From the IMG/VR virus record IMGVR_UViG_3300042821_000035: DNA of 64,000 nucleotides; one strand, written 5' to 3'. Source of the stretch: a virus. The position numbers were made by a program, and so were the translations under genes. The notes beneath the pieces were generated by a model, which saw only the letters and a list, made by a program, of their open reading frames with translations, was not told the DNA's origin and did no database searches. Of this stretch, positions 3,494 to 33,393 are shown piece after piece. Position 1 is the first letter of the stretch. Each line of letters begins with the position of its first letter.

Positions 3494-6400
3494 CACGCCA
3501 CCTTCATCTTGACGGCGCTGAGCTTCGGCGCCTTCTCGATCCACGCATCCCATGCTTTCCACGCGGTGCCCGCAACCACCACTTCCTGCTCGGATTTGAC
3601 GTTGATGCCGTAGGCCGGGATCGACAGCGCTGCAGTGCGCGGCATCAGCGCACGCAACACGATGCGAGACCCATCAGATGACCAGCCATTAGCAATGTCC
3701 GGGTTGAAGGTGGTCGAGGCGGCGCCGTTGCGCACCACATTGAGGTGCGGCACCTTTTTGTAGCCACCCTCCGCAACGCTGTAGGCCTCGGCCTCTTCAT
3801 ACTGTTCCTTCGGCAATACGATGCCGCGATAAAGCTCAAGCTCCTGCAGCCCCGCCTTGTCGAGCAGCATCTGCGTCGTCTCCCACTTGGCGCGCACATA
3901 GGCCTTGATGCCCTCATAGCCGCCGACATCGCCATAGTCCTTATCGGCCTTCTTGGCGATGACATCCTTTTCCAGCCTGATCTTGCCGTCGCGCCCGGTC
4001 ACCTCGTTGAGGCGCCCGCCCAGTTCATCGGCGGTCGCCACCTGCAACAGCTGGCCCTCTTCACTGGTCGAGGATGCTTTCCACGCCGTCCACAGCTTGG
4101 CATCCAGCCTGCGCAGGTCGATCCGCTCAATGTCGATGTCGCGATCCTTGAACACCTGCTCGGCGCGATCCAGCGACAGCTGCCGCGCGATCTTCTGCGT
4201 CTTCTTGTAATCGTCGCCCGAGGTCTCGTTGAGCGGGTCGAACTTGGCAGGCATGCCGATGGTGCCGGTGGGGGTGACGCCGGTCTGCTCGTACTCTGCC
4301 ATCGCCGTGTTGTACTCGTCCATCAGGTCGCCGATGATCGAGGTGTTGAATTTGGCCCACTTGAATTTCTCGTCGTCGTCCATGCCGGAGTAAGTCTCTT
4401 CCATGTACTCCTTGGCGCTGTCGGAGAAATCAGGCGGCTCCTCGTTGCTGGCGTTGTCCTGCGCCTTGTCGTTGAACTTCTCGACCAGCATGCCGGACAA
4501 TTCCATCCGCATTTTCTCGGTCAACAGTTTGGAGTAGTCCTGCTTCTCGATGCCCTCCATCTCGATCTGGTCCGGGTCTTCGAGGCTGTCGGCCTTCAGA
4601 CTGTGCAACAGCTTGTCGTCGTACTCGACATCGACCGAGCCGCCGCCCTCGCCATCGCTGTCATACCTGATGCGGATCGCTTGGCCCAGTTCAAGCGCGT
4701 TGAATGGAAACTCGGTATCGGTCTCGCGCAGGATGTCGCCGTCGCTGTCCTTGCTGACTTCCAGATATTCCGCGATGGCCTCGTTGATGAACAGTTCAGC
4801 ATCAGAGCCGTCGGCCAGATTGCCCTTGGCCTGATCCAGCGCGCCGCCGTTCTGCTGCCAGCTTTCGGTCTCGCTGTCGATGTAGCTGCTTAGCTCGTGA
4901 TCGTAATACGCGCTCTCGATGTCGGCCTGCGTGGACTCGCTCAGCATGTCCCAGCTTTCAGGCTCCGGCGGTCCGTCGTATTCGTTCTCCTCATCGGGCT
5001 CGGCTGAACCCTCTTCCTCGGGCTGGTCCGCGCCCGAGTACTTGTTCAACAGCGCTTCCATCGCGGGCTTGGCGCTCTGGTACTGCGTCTCCAGCCGCAC
5101 CGCGAGCGCCTTATTCCATTCGTCGCCACCAACGTCGATGGCCTTCGGCTCCAGCTTCAGTTGTGGCTCGCCAGCCTTCTTGCCGCTCAGCGCAGCAATC
5201 GCGGCGGCGTTCTGTGCCTTGCGATCCGGCGCGTTGGAGCCGAACTCACCCTCCTCATTGCGCGGATGCAATTCTTCCTTGAAGGCCCCGGCGTCCATGT
5301 AGCCGTTGACGGTGGGGCCGAACGTAATCTCAAAAGGGCCGTCACTGTCACCCAGTCCCTTGGCCTTCTCGCTGGCAGCCTTCTTGCCCTTGCCGCCGGT
5401 CCACTTCTCAGCCTCCTTGATCAGGTCAATGATGCCGATGTTGATGCGCGCCACCTTCACCTGTCGGCCGTCATTGGTGAGGTTGTTGTCGGACGCGTCA
5501 TGCGCCAGCTGCCCGGCCCATGTGTGATGACCATCGAGAATGTAGTCGTCGCGCGAGATCACGATGCGCTTGTAGAATTTGCCCTCTTCCTCGATCCGCT
5601 TCATCGAGGCGGCGACCTTCTCGCCACTTAGCTCGCTCTGCGACGCGCGCAGGTTGGCGGCCTTCTCGCGGCCCTCGTCCACCTCGTAGCCCTGCTCAAC
5701 CAGATACTTGACGAAGTCCCCGGTCTTGGAGGCGCGGATCACCGGCATCTCGACGCGCGGCACCCCGATCTGATCGGCGCAGAATAAATTGGTGCCCTTG
5801 ATGGTGACGTTGCACAGATTGAACGTCGGCGCCGATGAGCCGCCCTCTGCCATCTCCAGCGCGGTCTCGCCGAGCCGCTGGATCAGGGTCGTGACCTGCT
5901 TCGGTTGCTTGAGGTCCACCCGGCGATCTTCGAACAGCGCGCGCTGTGCATCGTAGACGTTGGAGGTGTGGATAACCCCGTTGCGGTCGATGAACGCATC
6001 CGGCGAGTAGCCCTTGCCGGGATGCTTGCCCGAGGTCTGCGTGGTGGCCTGTACTACGCCCTTGCCCTTGCGCGCGGCCACCGACTTGATGCCTGACAAC
6101 GTCTTGAGCAGCGCGCTTTCATTGGCGGCCAGCGCCTTCGCCTCACGCCGGGCCGATCCCTTCAGCGCTTTCAGTGCGGCTGCGTTCTTGGCGTTGCGGT
6201 TAGGTGCGGTCGAGCCGAACTCGCCTTCCTCGTTGCGCTTGATCAGTCGCTCATTCCAGATGCGGACATCCTCGAAGGCGGCGTCCTTCAGAGATCGCCC
6301 ACCCCGCGCGCCTGCTCCAGTGCGATATTGATCTCCTGATCGGACAGCGTCCTTCCTTCGAGACGCTCCAGCGTTTTTATCAGGCTTGCCTCCTCCGCGT

Positions 6401-14793: not shown

Positions 14794-15684
14794 ATGAACT
14801 CGATGCAAATCACCACGCCGTTGTCACGCAAGGCCGTTCTGGTCTCGGTCAACATCTCGCAGTGGACTGCCCGCAAGCTCGACCGCAAGGTCACCGACGA
14901 AACCAACCGCAAGTATCACGCGGCCGACGACGCCGGGCGCTACAACAAGCTGCTCATCGCCTCCGAGCATCTGGCTGAACTCACCGGCATGGTGAGCAAG
15001 GCGCGCATGCTGCACTACAAGATGACGCAGCCGTGGGCCGACGATGGCCCGCGCATTCTGCCCAACGCGCTGTTCTCGAAATTCAGTGATGAGTTTCGCA
15101 CCCTGAAGCGTGAATTCAACGATGCCGCCGACCGCTTCTGTGCGGCCTACCCGGCATTCGTCGAGGAGCGCAAGAAGGCGCTGAACGGCCTGTTCAATGA
15201 CGGCGACTACCCGTCGGCCGATGACATCCGCAGCAAGTTCAATCTTGATCTGACCATCCTGCCATTCCCCGACGCTGCCGACTTCCGCAGCGAGCTGGAC
15301 GATGACACGGTGGCTGAGATCAGGGCGCAGCTGCAGGTCACCACCTCCACGGTGGTTGACAAGGCGATGGCGCACACGGTCGAACGGATCGTCTCGGTGG
15401 TTGGCCACATGGCCAACAAGCTGACGGCCTACTCGAACCGGGCGCCCGGCGAGTTAGGCGGCGTGTTCAGGGACTCGCTAGTCGAGAACGTTCGCGAACT
15501 CGCCGATCTGTTGCCCGCCTTCAATCTGGTGGGCGATGCCAAGCTCGATGAGATCGCCAAGCGGATCAAAGCCGAGCTTTGCACCGAGGACGCCAAGAGC
15601 CTGCGCGAAAACGACGGCGCCCGCGAAGCCGTGCAGAAGTCCGCAGACGAAATCGTTGCCGCAGTCTCCGGACTATTCGGCTGA
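14794..15684 (+). CDS. DUF3150-like protein
   Basis: 296 aa; LVSVNISQWTARKLD...YP...IRSKF pattern resembles DUF3150; sits between the AAA and VWA genes. Confidence 0.55.
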   Translation: MNSMQITTPLSRKAVLVSVNISQWTARKLDRKVTDETNRKYHAADDAGRYNKLLIASEHLAELTGMVSKARMLHYKMTQPWADDGPRILPNALFSKFSDEFRTLKREFNDAADRFCAAYPAFVEERKKALNGLFNDGDYPSADDIRSKFNLDLTILPFPDAADFRSELDDDTVAEIRAQLQVTTSTVVDKAMAHTVERIVSVVGHMANKLTAYSNRAPGELGGVFRDSLVENVRELADLLPAFNLVGDAKLDEIAKRIKAELCTEDAKSLRENDGAREAVQKSADEIVAAVSGLFG

Positions 15685-15749
15685 TCACTGAGTGCAGCGG
15701 GCATGTCCCGCTGCATCACAGTGACCATCAATCAACAAAGGAGCAAACC

Positions 15750-17261
15750 ATGTCAGACCTCAACACCAAAGCGATGTCACGCATCGAGAAGGCGCGCGTC
15801 CGGTTATCACTGGAGCGCAAATTCTACGGCGTGCTGGTCGCCAACGTCGAGCCGGTGATCTCGGAAAAGTTTCCGACCGCCGCCACCAACGGCAAGCAGC
15901 ACTTCTGGAATCCGAAGTTCATCTCTGAACTGACCGAGGACGAAGTGCTCGGCGTGCAGGTGCACGAATCAGAACACGATGCGCGCCATCACGGCACGCG
16001 TCGCAACGGGCGCGATCCCGAGCTTTGGAATATCGCCTGCGACTACGCGATCAACATCGACCTGATCGACGAGGGCTTCACGTTGCCGAAGGGCGCGCTG
16101 ATCGACCCGAAGTATCGCGGCATGTCAGCCGAGGATATTTATAGATCGCGCGAACTGGATTCGCGGCAGCCGCAACCCGAGCCCGAGCAGCCCGGCGACG
16201 ACACCAACCCGGATCAGAACCCGGACGAACCCGGACAGAACCCGGATGAGCCCGGACAGGGCGACGATGGAACCGCTGGCGAGGCCGCTGGTGAGGGCGA
16301 AGGCGATGAGGGGCAGGAAGATGCCCCCGGCGCCGGGAACTCACCCGGCGAGGCTGGCAACGAGGCTGGCGAGGCGTCCGGTGATGAACCGGGCACCGAA
16401 CCCGGCGACGGCACCGGCAACGGTGCTGATGGCAAGGCGCGGCGTGGCTTGGCATGCACTGGCGAGCCACGGCTCGGCGAGGCAGGCGAGGCCGACGGTG
16501 AAGGCGAGCCGGAGCAATCCGGTTCGCCCGATCCGGCAGCCTCCGGCGATCCCGGCCAGTGCGGTCAGGTGCTGGACTCGGTTGGCGATGCCAACGAGAT
16601 CGCCGAACAGGACAGCGACTGGGAGCGCAAGGTCCGGCAGGCGGTGTCGATGGCGAAGGCCGCTGGCCAGCTGCCCGGCTACGTCTCCCGCGACATCGAG
16701 CGCGCCAATTCACCGCCGCGCGATTGGCGGGATGAGCTTCGCGAATTCGCGGAGCAGGGCGCGCTCAGGGTCGAGACTTGGTCAAGACCGAACCGGCGCT
16801 TCATGGGTCGCGGCCTGATCCTGCCGTCCACCCAGAAGGACGGCGTCAACAAGGCATGCTTCCTGATCGACACCTCGGGCTCGTGCGACCAAGTCGCGCT
16901 GGCCCTCGTCAACGATGAAGCTCAGGCGCTGCTCGATGACGGCGTGGTCGATCAGGTCATCGCGATCTATGGCGACACGCGGGTTACTCGCGTGGATGAG
17001 TACAACAGCGGCGACGAAATCGAGTTCGACCCCCGAGGCGGTGGCGGCACCGACATGGCGCCGCTGTTCGACTACGTGGCAACCGAGCACGATGACGCCT
17101 CGCTGATCATCTGCTTCACCGACTTGGAATTCTACAAGTCGTGCGGTGACGAACCGCAGTGCCCGGTGCTGTTCGCCGTGCACGGCTACCCGCAGAACGT
17201 CAGGCGCCTGATGGAGACCGCCCCGTGGGGCGCACGCTGCATCGACGTTGGCGTTCACTGA
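15750..17261 (+). CDS. DUF2201-like metallopeptidase + VWA domain protein
   Basis: TAATNG, HESEH (HExxH), WNIACDYAIN; acidic G/E/P linker; MIDAS DTSGS; GGGGTD; start at 15750 after AAAGGAGCAA. Confidence 0.88.
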   Translation: MSDLNTKAMSRIEKARVRLSLERKFYGVLVANVEPVISEKFPTAATNGKQHFWNPKFISELTEDEVLGVQVHESEHDARHHGTRRNGRDPELWNIACDYAINIDLIDEGFTLPKGALIDPKYRGMSAEDIYRSRELDSRQPQPEPEQPGDDTNPDQNPDEPGQNPDEPGQGDDGTAGEAAGEGEGDEGQEDAPGAGNSPGEAGNEAGEASGDEPGTEPGDGTGNGADGKARRGLACTGEPRLGEAGEADGEGEPEQSGSPDPAASGDPGQCGQVLDSVGDANEIAEQDSDWERKVRQAVSMAKAAGQLPGYVSRDIERANSPPRDWRDELREFAEQGALRVETWSRPNRRFMGRGLILPSTQKDGVNKACFLIDTSGSCDQVALALVNDEAQALLDDGVVDQVIAIYGDTRVTRVDEYNSGDEIEFDPRGGGGTDMAPLFDYVATEHDDASLIICFTDLEFYKSCGDEPQCPVLFAVHGYPQNVRRLMETAPWGARCIDVGVH

Positions 17262-30145: not shown

Positions 30146-30174
30146 TTTACAATCACATTTCTATTACGTATATG
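30146..30174 (+). promoter_or_regulatory. Candidate sigma70 promoter TTTACA-N17-TATATG for the RAMP operon
   Basis: AT-rich divergent intergenic region, ~50 nt upstream of ATG 30227. Confidence 0.5.
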
Positions 30175-30226
30175 CTGATTGTTGCCAAAATCCAAATTTC
30201 AATTTTTCAAAGGAGCAAGAGACCAA

Positions 30227-31012
30227 ATGGCAGTGAAGAAGAAGACCGAGAAGCCCGCCCCCATCACAACAAAGGGGGTGATCAACCTCGCCGAGTTGAT
30301 GTCCACCGAGGTGGCCTACCAGCATTTCCGCATCTGGCTGGTTGGCGGTACGCCGCTGATCACGCACGCATGGTCCGAGAAGGCCAAGCGGGAGATGCTG
30401 CAGAAGCAGGTCAAGGGTACCAAGGGCGGCAAGGAAGCCCGCGATCCGCATGATGACTTCGTGAACTCGCTCTATGAGATGGGCCACGTCAAAGGCAAAC
30501 CGATCTATGGTTTCCCGGTCACCGGAATCAAGAACGCGATTCTGTCTGCCGCGCACAAGGACAAGGGCGTGCCACGCACGACCGTGATGAGCGCACTCTA
30601 TCTCGACGCAAATTTGGTTCGCGTCAGGCCAGCGCTCGCTGGTGCGATTTGTGACATGCCCTTGGTGCGCATCTACTCCGGCGATCCGGAGATGCGCGAG
30701 GACATGGTTCGCGTCGGTGCTGGCCTGAACAAGAAGGCATCGCTCGCCTATCGCGGACAGTTCACGCACTGGGCGGTCAGAATCACCGGCAAGTTCAATA
30801 GCGCGGTGCTCAACGGTCAGCAGCTTGGCTTCCTCATCAACGAGTCTGGCACTGGGGTGGGCATTGGCGAATGGCGCAACGAAAAACGTGGCATGTTTGG
30901 CGCGTTCCGCATGGCCAACCTCGCCGAGGGTGAGGCTTGGGAAAAATTCGCGGCGGGTAAGGGGCCGCTGCCGAAGCGTGAGGAAGACGACATTCTGGAA
31001 GCAGCGGAGTAA
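30227..31012 (+). CDS. Cas7/RAMP-like RNA-binding protein (Vipr-like effector), 261 aa
   Basis: N-terminal strand FRIWLVGGTPLITHAW, central YGFPVTGIKNAILSAA, C-terminal Gly-rich loop GTGVGIGEWRNEKRGMFGAF; AAAGGAGCAA RBS; adjacent pentamer array; no cas1/cas2/cas3 nearby. Confidence 0.75.
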   Translation: MAVKKKTEKPAPITTKGVINLAELMSTEVAYQHFRIWLVGGTPLITHAWSEKAKREMLQKQVKGTKGGKEARDPHDDFVNSLYEMGHVKGKPIYGFPVTGIKNAILSAAHKDKGVPRTTVMSALYLDANLVRVRPALAGAICDMPLVRIYSGDPEMREDMVRVGAGLNKKASLAYRGQFTHWAVRITGKFNSAVLNGQQLGFLINESGTGVGIGEWRNEKRGMFGAFRMANLAEGEAWEKFAAGKGPLPKREEDDILEAAE

Positions 31013-31019
31013 TCACAAC

Positions 31020-31553
31020 ATGATCCGATACGTTTTTAAGGACAAACCTCTCGTCATCAAGGGAGGCGCTAAAGCCGATCCACAAAAGATCGGCGAGGCG
31101 CTGGCGAGAATCAGGGAGCAGACCAAGGGCCGGTGCAATTCAAAGACCGTGCTCGATGCTGCGCGCAACAACAAGCACTACCTGCATCGCTTCTTTGAAT
31201 GGCGCGACACCATCGCGGCGGAAAAGTATCGGCAGGAGCAGGCGCGCGAGCTTGTCGGCTGCGTTGATATTGTCGAGCGCGCTGAGAAGAAGGGCGATGC
31301 CGACAGGCGGTTGCCTGCGTTCATCAGCCTGTCAGAAAAGGGCGGTCGCAATATTCGCACGGTGCAGGAGGTGCTCGAAAGCAGCGCGCTGCAGGCGATA
31401 GCGCTGAAGCAAGCGGAAAATGATCTAGCTGCTTACGAGCGGCGGCTAGAGGTATTCGGTGATATCTGCAACGCGATCAGGCAAGCAAGAGAAATGATCG
31501 CTGCGCGGCGCGCACGGTACGAGGCTTCGGGCGGTTTTCCGGGGCACGCGTAG
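31020..31553 (+). CDS. Conserved-looking accessory protein between the RAMP gene and the array (177 aa)
   Basis: ATG 7 nt after the RAMP stop; LHRFFEWRDTIAAEKYRQEQARELV motif; its stop abuts the array leader. Confidence 0.75.
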   Translation: MIRYVFKDKPLVIKGGAKADPQKIGEALARIREQTKGRCNSKTVLDAARNNKHYLHRFFEWRDTIAAEKYRQEQARELVGCVDIVERAEKKGDADRRLPAFISLSEKGGRNIRTVQEVLESSALQAIALKQAENDLAAYERRLEVFGDICNAIRQAREMIAARRARYEASGGFPGHA

Positions 31554-32403
31554 GTTAAGACTATTGGCAAGGCAGGTCATGGCTCGTTCTGGTTTGGCGT
31601 GTCGGGGCCGTAGTCAGGCATGGCAAGGCAGGCGAGGCACGGCAAGGCCCGGCTGCGCAAGTCGGGGCATGGCGAGGCCGAGCAAGGCAAGGCAAGGCAG
31701 GCGAGGCGTGGCATTGTATGACTCGACTCGGTCAGGCAGGTCCGCGCGTGGCAAGGCAGGCATGGCTTGTCCGGTCAAGGCCCGGAGCGGCGATGGCGTT
31801 GTAAGTCGGCGCACGGCAAGGCAGGCACGGCGTGTCTGGTTCAGGCTTCGCATCGCAAAGCGCTGCAGGGCTAAGGCAAGGCAGGCGTGGCGCGGCGCGA
31901 CGTGGCTAGGTCAGTCAGGTTCAGGCGAGGCTTGGTCTGTTGCGGCGAGGCAAGGCAAGGCAAGGCAGGCGTGGCTTGGCACTCTACGGCAAGGCGGTGT
32001 CCGGCACGTCGGTGTAAGGCAGGCATGGCCGGGCTGGGTGCGGCAGAGTCGGGAGTGTCATGTCGTGTTCTGGTCAGGCAAGGCAATGCGCGTCTGGTCT
32101 CTGCAAGGCAGGCACGGCGGGGCGCGGCTGATCTGGGTTAGGTTGGTCGCGTTACTGCAAGCCATGGCAAGGCAGGCTTGGCAAGGCTGGTCTCGGAGTG
32201 GCGATGTCAGTTCAGGCATTGCTAGTCGGGAGGCTGGCGAGGCAAGGCAGGCAAGGCGTGGCGACGCAATGCGCGGCTAGTCCGTGCCGGGCGGTTGCGA
32301 GGCTTAGTCTGGAGTGCCAAGGCAAGGCAGGCAAGGTCCGTCCAGTCCGATCTAGTCGAGGCGTTTTTCGGCGAGGCGGGGTGGTGCTGGTCAAGGCAGG
32401 CTA
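31554..32403 (+). repeat. GGY-NN pentamer array (candidate multi-guide vrRNA), 12 units delimited by AAGGCAGGC
   Basis: 5-nt periodicity; AAGGCAGGC at 31625, 31694, 31753, 31818, 31878, 31962, 32016, 32105, 32169, 32244, 32324, 32393. Confidence 0.93.
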
Positions 32404-32406
32404 ATC

Positions 32407-32432
32407 GGGGGTGAGCGCTGTTGCTCACCCCC
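32407..32432 (+). terminator. Hairpin GGGGGTGAGC-GCTGTT-GCTCACCCCC closing the array
   Basis: Perfect 10-bp stem right after the last AAGGCAGGC. Confidence 0.7.
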
Positions 32433-32457
32433 ACAATTTCAAAAAAGGAGCAAAAAA

Positions 32458-33393
32458 GTGGAAGTCAGAAAATGGGATGGCAAGCCAATCACAGAGAACG
32501 GTTGGGTCAGCGACATCCCCATTGAGCGCTATCACAGCGCCGGAATGTGCTCTGGCCCGTCGGTGTCGAGCACTGATTTGCGCACGTGCTGGAGCCACTC
32601 GCCCGCGAAGATGTTTGCGTTCTGGGCCGAGAATCCGCAGCGCGAGGAGCGCGAGGTCACCAACGCCATGCTGCTTGGCGGCTGCGCGCATTATCTCCTG
32701 CTCGGCGAAGCAAACTTCCGTCAGAAGTATGCGGCGCAGCCCGAAGAATATCCGGGCCCGAAGGGCGAAATGAAGAAGTGGCACATGGGCGCCGACTACT
32801 GCAAGGAGTGGGTCGCGTTTCATGAGGCCAAGGGCTTCACCATCGTCACGGTCAAGATACTGAACGCTATCGTCAAGATGGCCGAGTCGCTGCGCATCTT
32901 GGCGCTGGTCAAGGATGGCTTGCTGCGTGGCCATGTCGAAACGTCTGGCTTCTTCTGGGACCAAGAAAGCAACCTTTGGTTAAAAGTCAGGCCCGATGTG
33001 GTCCCGTCCGACGGTCCCGAGTTCGTAGACCTGAAGACCGCTGCCGACGTGACAACGGTCGCGCTGCAGAACAGCATCCACACCTATGGCTACAATCAAC
33101 AGGCTGCGCTGATCGCCGAAGTCTGCGAAGGACTCGGCCAGCCGTTTGACGGCTTCATGTGCATGTTTGTCGAGACCAAGGCGCCGTACTGCGCGCGCAT
33201 GGCGCCGCTGACAGACGTTGATCTCGGGCTGGGCCGCCAGCAAAACCGCGACAGCCTGCGCAGGATCAGCGCGAGCATCAAGGCCGGACACTGGCCGGGG
33301 CCGGGCGAGGACAACCCGCTGCAGCCGCTGGGCATGGGCAAAGACAAACGCGAGCGCATCATGGCGAGATTGACGCATGAAGGATTGGTATAA
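32458..33393 (+). CDS. Exonuclease VIII/RecE-like PD-(D/E)xK nuclease (DUF3799-like)
   Basis: VSSTDL, LKVRPDVV, FVDLKTAAD, YGYNQQAA; upstream of recT. Confidence 0.85.
   Translation: MEVRKWDGKPITENGWVSDIPIERYHSAGMCSGPSVSSTDLRTCWSHSPAKMFAFWAENPQREEREVTNAMLLGGCAHYLLLGEANFRQKYAAQPEEYPGPKGEMKKWHMGADYCKEWVAFHEAKGFTIVTVKILNAIVKMAESLRILALVKDGLLRGHVETSGFFWDQESNLWLKVRPDVVPSDGPEFVDLKTAADVTTVALQNSIHTYGYNQQAALIAEVCEGLGQPFDGFMCMFVETKAPYCARMAPLTDVDLGLGRQQNRDSLRRISASIKAGHWPGPGEDNPLQPLGMGKDKRERIMARLTHEGLV

Follow-up and report, generated by a model that had tools for sequence, protein, structure and literature searches.

What is the role of a small open reading frame (ORF) that lies, in a viral genome, between the gene of a RAMP protein and a repetitive array? 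The question is raised by a locus in the 64,000-nt stretch of DNA analysed here (hereafter the window), whose parent record, a complete virus genome of 85,350 bp, contains the ORF in single copy. The ORF spans 31020–31553 on the plus strand, from an ATG at 31020 to a TAG at 31551–31553, and encodes a protein of 177 amino acids. The gene is real, since homologues are found down to an E value of 1e-68 and the product matches phrog_15946 (E 6e-20), a PHROG listed as being of 'unknown function'. An initial annotation had placed its start 7 nt past the RAMP stop codon and its TAG at the leader of the array, and both placements are accurate: exactly 7 nt (31013–31019) separate the TAA of the upstream gene (31010–31012) from the ATG, which has GGAG 10 nt on its 5′ side, and the array tract runs from 31554, its first GGCAAGGCAGG unit beginning at 31566, 12 nt past the TAG.

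VIPR (Viral Interference Programmable Repeat) systems were first described in 2026 (bioRxiv 10.64898/2026.04.26.720920). Their loci comprise vipr, which encodes a minimal RAMP protein polymerising on the guide, the vipr-accessory protein gene (vap), and vrRNAs built from GGY/NN repeats, in which the NN dinucleotides read double-stranded DNA, with one base skipped per unit. The present locus is a VIPR system and not a CRISPR system. The gene upstream of the ORF, whose true start is the ATG at 30227 with AAGGAG ahead of it, matches phrog_4652 (E 6.8e-19), the same PHROG that is matched by the Vipr protein of Escherichia phage SUSP1 (gp039, E 1.4e-96), and a profile of its family, built from 25 homologues, matches the PDB entry 36pp_D, 'SUSP1 Vipr protein' (E 2.1e-12). 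The tract downstream of the ORF contains no direct repeats of the CRISPR type (25–40 nt) and is thus not a CRISPR array. Additionally, Pfam and NCBIfam revealed no Cas families in the neighbouring genes scanned, and Rfam and tRNA scans of the window gave no matches. What had been called the RAMP gene and the array in the initial annotation are thus vipr and its vrRNA array; the ORF between them occupies the vap slot. Another reading, a prophage early region with an unexplained 5-nt tract (a DNA coating site, a Chi-like cluster or an R-loop origin), was considered because the tract is followed by genes for a RecE-like DUF3799 exonuclease and RecT (Pfam/NCBIfam and PHROG matches), and it was dropped since the claims of the VIPR papers held at this locus.

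The repeat tract itself was characterised in several ways. Tandem Repeats Finder assigns a period of 5 to the stretch of about 850 nt that follows vap, in which GGC, GGT and GTC cores are separated by variable dinucleotides, and the G-periodicity power at period 5 reaches 10.7 times background in the first 400 nt past vap. The GGY-phase scanner that finds this array also recovers the published vrRNA arrays of SUSP1. Furthermore, three related metagenomic contigs (L004, L005 and L006; proteins 60–66% identical) carry the same trio, consisting of a 261–277-aa gene, vap a few nucleotides further on, and a pentamer tract whose length and sequence differ strongly. The array in the window holds 13 AAGGCAGG landmarks and no obvious tail structures, and the landmark recurs in the arrays of related loci, including L009, L010 and L133. 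Its enrichment together with an N-terminal extension of this Vap subfamily was noted and not counted as evidence, given that shared ancestry confounds the two.

The best explanation of the arrangement is that vap is co-transcribed with vipr, with the guide array directly after vap, and the spacing of only 7 nt between the two genes speaks for an operon (Table 1). The promoter listed for it is a candidate only, because a consensus scan at its threshold made no call at that site. The hairpin closing the array, a perfect 10-bp stem in the RNA fold (centroid −23 kcal/mol), likewise received no call in a terminator scan; the array of L005 ends in an analogous hairpin, there with a T-run.

Table 1. 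Features of the VIPR locus in the window, with the basis of each assignment
Feature	Coordinates	Strand	Basis
Candidate promoter of the vipr-vap-array operon	30147..30175	+	TTTACA, 17 nt, TATATG, read from the sequence
vipr, minimal RAMP protein of 261 aa, predicted to bind vrRNA	30227..31012	+	phrog_4652; profile match to 36pp_D
vap-type accessory gene, 177 aa	31020..31553	+	phrog_15946; AlphaFold2 pLDDT 90; linkage to vipr
vrRNA array of GGY-NN pentamers, ~850 nt, in which AAGGCAGG(C) landmarks recur	31554..32405	+	Periodicity; array scanner
10-bp G+C-rich hairpin closing the array, without U-tract	32407..32432	+	RNA fold

Several further observations concern the array and its surroundings. 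The RecE-like gene begins 26 nt past the hairpin, behind a AAGGAGCAAAAAA motif (32440–32460) that closely resembles the sequence ahead of vipr, AAGGAGCAAGAGACCAAATG, and the two may represent a shared translation-initiation or processing signal. ORFs extend across the arrays in the window (31564–32280, plus strand, 238 aa) and in L003 (4626–4949), L001 (4026–4190) and L004 (9067–11182); array-spanning calls include 'gp40' of Gordonia phage UmaThurman, 'gp53' of Mycobacterium phage Gorge, and the 238- and 486-aa genes of L004. Stop codons are scarce in G-rich pentamers, which is why such ORFs arise, and as genes they are almost certainly spurious. When the first guide after vap (31566–31615) is decoded with one base skipped per unit, 18 of 20 informative positions match positions 2816–2844 of the related phage contig L005, which lie in a DEAD/ResIII helicase gene, and the bases skipped are wobble positions of that gene. 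The search with this guide returned two matches of at least 18/20, compared with none when the dinucleotide order was shuffled, which suggests that the array targets sister phages. Elsewhere in the window (16416–16495, plus strand), about a dozen GGC-NN units, GGCAGGCGAGGC among them, follow one another in phase within the long ORF 15579–17261, which has coding-like codon bias; the run may be G-rich by chance or may be a further stand-alone guide embedded in the ORF. Finally, an A+T-rich viral contig with the order vap-array-vipr (L058, 4500–5230) has, in its intergenic tract, a pentamer core of the ACA/GAC type (as in GACAG AACAG AACAC) instead of GGY; non-canonical VIPR repeat units have been reported (bioRxiv 10.64898/2026.10.21.760802), and this tract fits such units.

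Whether the ORF belongs to the system is answered by the gene neighbourhoods of its homologues. A profile search with a cut-off of E <= 0.001 recovered 12,775 cluster representatives, 8,753 of which remain at E <= 1e-10, and more than 90% of the Atlas clusters of the family are viral. The 116 loci examined, comprising 80 viral contigs, 29 species-representative genomes, three phage records, three metagenome contigs and the window, were scanned for Vipr with an HMM derived from its homologues, and for arrays with the GGY-phase scanner. Among these loci, which sample the 12,775 profile hits down to about 26–30% identity and favour the closest relatives, in 115 of 116 the vap homologue and a vipr gene share a strand and lie no more than about 1.4 kb apart, and after clustering at 70% identity 59 of 60 clusters are vipr-linked. 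For GTDB genomes, vipr stands alongside in 28 of the 29 homologue carriers, a set that extends over Alphaproteobacteria, Firmicutes, Bacteroidota, Chloroflexi, a CPR bacterium, a Methanosarcinales archaeon and a Woesearchaeote; vap also adjoins vipr in Gordonia phage UmaThurman, Cyanophage Cy-LDV1 and cluster-F mycobacteriophages. Counted by cluster, the gene order is vipr-vap-array in 24 cases, vipr-array-vap in 26 and vap-array-vipr in nine. The single homologue locus without a recognisable vipr (L112, 3006–5087) has an integrase fragment upstream and a GGY run (4362–4451) downstream, and in one other locus, L029, vipr is a truncated remnant. Past the GGY run of L112 lies a 175-aa ORF without a PHROG match, which could be a very divergent Vipr.

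The reverse test gave a matching picture. Loci were anchored on Vipr proteins 39–70% identical to that of the window, with a profile of closer sequences (the broad alignment having no sufficiently conserved block), and the vap family is present in 79 of these 80 loci; the sole exception is a contig that ends 170 nt past vipr, and the count for loci with enough flanking DNA is 79 of 79. Over the sampled range, the linkage of vap and vipr is mutual and near-obligate, and among the sampled loci the family occurs only beside Vipr genes of one clade, in a sample in which many viral contigs come from one source sample, the HMMs were refined on the same loci, and most E values lie between 1e-40 and 1e-85. 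The initial annotation had described a dedicated accessory partner of the RAMP gene and array, a view that is strongly supported by these co-occurrences (115/116 and 79/79); homologues that mostly occur without either element are clearly not what the neighbourhoods contain. The absence of an annotated function, both for the gene and for its PHROG, would also suit an unrelated phage early gene that merely happens to stand beside vipr in this genome, but co-occurrence across phyla and domains of life, along with the operon-like 7-nt spacing, makes such an origin extremely unlikely. Its basic identity as an accessory gene of a VIPR system is highly probable.

The protein offers further clues to its function. 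The LHRFFEWRD..AAEKYRQEQAR motif pointed out in the initial annotation is present at residues 55–76 and is the most conserved stretch of the family, with W61, A66 and Q74 invariant and L55, H56, F59, R71, A75 and R76 near-invariant. Pfam and NCBIfam searches match the protein to no family, and no nuclease domain is therefore detected, in line with the earlier remark that no nuclease motif could be recognised; a Pfam KH_1 match (E 0.075) was set aside, being below threshold and falling on a helix. AlphaFold2 predicts a confident structure, with a pLDDT of 90 both for the full protein and for residues 1–122 alone. The predicted N-domain (residues ~18–120) is a winged-helix-like alpha/beta unit of four helices and a four-stranded sheet, to which this subfamily adds an extra N-terminal strand. 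In the predicted model, the invariant FEW...AAEKYR.QAR motif maps to the end of helix 54–58 and to helix 67/68–80, and the conserved R71, Q74 and R76 sit on the latter, immediately before the beta-hairpin. The C-terminus, previously described as helical, is predicted at the same pLDDT to form one long helix (residues 122–169, ~48 residues), with hydrophobic residues at positions 136, 139, 143, 146, 149, 153, 156 and 160 in 64–96% of 179 distinct sequences. This 3-4 heptad rhythm points to oligomerisation or docking, as in coiled-coil helices.

Structural comparison in VIA assigned nearly all of the 50 best matches of the N-domain to winged-helix proteins, with Z scores of 4.6–6.1 over 61–89 aligned residues. 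The matches include YceH, MecI/BlaI, Fur/PerR, MarR, PadR, FoxP, KAT6A, SAMD1, Z-alpha, LOTUS, ESCRT-II and SelB, and they are modestly in favour of a consistent fold class, at Z scores (4.6–6.1) too low to prove homology. With the full model, VIA mostly matched the long helix, a trivial result; Foldseek searches of the PDB with the full model and with the N-domain returned nothing at E <= 0.001, and PDB sequence searches with the single protein and with two profiles returned nothing significant. A winged-helix-like fold would modestly favour a module for nucleic-acid or protein docking. The net charge of the N-domain has a family median of −3, with +8 over residues 1–121 in this member; a mildly acidic N-domain across the family would be unusual for a general DNA binder, and protein docking may fit at least equally well.

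Small phage regulators typically combine a winged-helix-like domain with a dimerising helix, and Vap might then be a dimeric winged-helix transcriptional regulator that acts on the VIPR operon or on early genes nearby and times vipr and array expression during infection, apart from the silencing complex. Its position in an early/regulatory region, in relatives with a divergent Cro/YdaS-like gene as its neighbour, would agree with such a role, and a higher effector level could also explain the extra protection obtained by co-expression of the SUSP1 Vap1 (see below). However, vap follows vipr itself through three gene orders and very different genomic settings, with no single promoter context, and a regulator would be lost or replaced more easily than retention in 79 of 79 loci suggests. 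We therefore consider a separate regulatory role very unlikely.

Experimental background comes from SUSP1, whose Vap1 is the only Vap tested experimentally. In that system, vipr and one vrRNA gene suffice for mature vrRNA (~100 nt), RNP assembly, specific DNA binding and GFP repression, and Vap1 is dispensable for RNP formation as well as for repression under VIPR over-expression. Co-expression of Vap1 enhances defence, and its deletion (delta-vap1) results in a 10^4 plaquing loss on a satellite lysogen, the same as that of delta-vipr. Other VIPR types have nucleases or helicases in the vap slot, which makes this slot look like an effector position. In P. fulva, VIPR RNPs were purified from a vap1-containing construct, and accessory genes appear only in the discussion of that paper, as uncharacterised; a stable complex between Vap and the apo-RNP is for this reason unlikely in the P. 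fulva system.

Considered as a whole, the best explanation, to which we give a probability of roughly 0.6, is that the ORF is the vap gene of a phage VIPR RNA-guided DNA-silencing system, with a proposed co-repressor role. The narrower assignment of Vap as the effector or co-repressor module of the system is more tentative, somewhat short of even odds, and is drawn by analogy from the behaviour of the non-homologous Vap1 of SUSP1. In the proposed mechanism, the Vipr-vrRNA filament would engage the target DNA first and Vap would join afterwards. Vap may oligomerise via its long C-terminal helix, while its winged-helix-like domain would dock it on the filament or on distorted DNA, and docking would then lead to transcriptional silencing that is strong enough at native expression levels.

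Several features of the locus would also suit a factor for vrRNA biogenesis or filament length, which would read the AAGGCAGG(C) landmarks or the array transcript, set the ends of filaments or vrRNAs, and act in a long 'staggered' array without ribozymes and structured tails. The array adjoins vap in all three gene orders and vipr in only two; the 13 landmarks without obvious tails, also seen as the same landmark in L009, L010 and L133, the published staggered arrays without a described processing factor, and the RNA-binding winged-helix folds (SelB and LOTUS) among the structural matches all agree with it. Such a function is nevertheless rather unlikely, as mature ~100-nt vrRNAs, RNPs and silencing are obtained from SUSP1 vipr and one vrRNA gene without Vap, the link between the landmark and the Vap subfamily is inseparable from shared ancestry, and no nuclease or RNA-binding family was detected in Pfam or NCBIfam.

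The initial annotation had spoken of a dedicated accessory subunit; the accessory partnership stands, and the physical subunit is unsupported, in that the complex prediction for Vipr and Vap (score 0.00) gave no verdict, neither for nor against binding, and the lone apparent fusion is a frameshift. The latter, gp54 of Mycobacterium phage Gorge (405 aa, matching both PHROGs; L001 4227–5444), was rejected as a Vipr-Vap fusion on finding that it is a frameshifted vipr reading into vap: past ~180 residues the reading is off the Vipr frame, continues as an Arg/Pro-rich read-through and then enters the vap frame. The related cluster-F phage Quico encodes an intact 199-aa Vipr and a 151-aa Vap as separate genes, and Brocalys, of the same cluster, also has two intact genes. 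A search for longer, fused forms of the vap family found none, which is weak evidence. As a separate observation, the frameshift in Gorge, provided that it does not reflect a sequencing error, removes the C-terminal G-loop region of Vipr and therefore probably leaves the VIPR system of this phage inactive.

A more far-reaching version of the co-repressor reading, which we regard as decidedly unlikely, would make Vap a second structural layer on the Vipr filament, polymerising via the heptad helix and locking the R-loop triplex, with phrog_15946 as the dominant Vap across bacteria, archaea and viruses. If true, phrog_15946 would be far wider than the 667 catalogued representative systems and a functional analogue of the CRISPR small subunits, and Vap would represent an ancient, separately evolved way to stabilise RNA-guided DNA binding.

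VIPR systems and vap genes as such have already been published. What is new here is that phrog_15946 can be assigned to the Vaps, that the family is so large, and that, across domains of life, it and one Vipr clade are mutually linked; also new are the absence of detectable sequence similarity to the sole tested Vap and a confident two-part predicted model with testable residues. These points matter since the tested Vap is as important as Vipr in natural infection. Candidate residues for experiment are W61, R71, Q74 and R76, together with the heptad positions 136–160. For genome annotation, phrog_15946 and phrog_4652 form a reliable marker pair for VIPR loci, and ORFs called across pentamer arrays are to be treated as spurious.

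Among known systems, the Cas11-type small subunits of Cascade and Csm are small non-RAMP proteins that stand beside a filament-forming RAMP and stabilise the target-bound state; the comparison with Vap is a conceptual analogy only, with no sequence or structural match in any search. The BlaI/MecI, MarR and Fur regulators share with the predicted Vap model a helix-rich domain, a beta-hairpin 'wing' and a helical oligomerisation element, whereas the window Vap differs from them in its low similarity (Z 5–6, <10% identity), its extra strands (the four-stranded sheet and the N-terminal strand), the family-wide acidic charge and the lack of Pfam membership.

The closest positional counterpart is Vap1 of SUSP1 (gp038, 146 aa), which occupies the same slot directly after vipr, is similar in size and has a vrRNA array next to it, Vipr gp039 and Vap1 gp038 being flanked by GGT-NN arrays. 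The Vipr proteins of SUSP1 and the window are homologous, both belonging to phrog_4652, whereas SUSP1 Vap1 falls into phrog_5926 and the window Vap into phrog_15946. No sequence similarity between the two Vaps was found by BLASTP (E 4.9) or in two hhalign comparisons (probability <1%), and a 138-position HMM run against the SUSP1 ORFs alone gave Vap1 an E value of 2.9, with no detectable similarity; an Atlas feature search with both proteins gave no sign either way on relatedness. Given this lack of detectable similarity and the different PHROGs, the analogy with SUSP1 Vap1 is one by position only. The two also differ greatly in family size, with three clusters for SUSP1 Vap1 and 8,753 clusters (E <= 1e-10) for the window Vap. 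In the published scheme, vap is the second gene of VIPR loci (vap1-6), and for types II, VI and VII the Vaps are predicted to bind DNA (bioRxiv 10.64898/2026.04.26.720920). The likeness to these genes lies in position and predicted fold: the published vap genes, like the window gene, are the second protein gene of a minimal vipr-plus-array phage locus, and the window Vap, like the predicted DNA-binding Vaps of types II, VI and VII, is a small protein with a predicted winged-helix-like domain.
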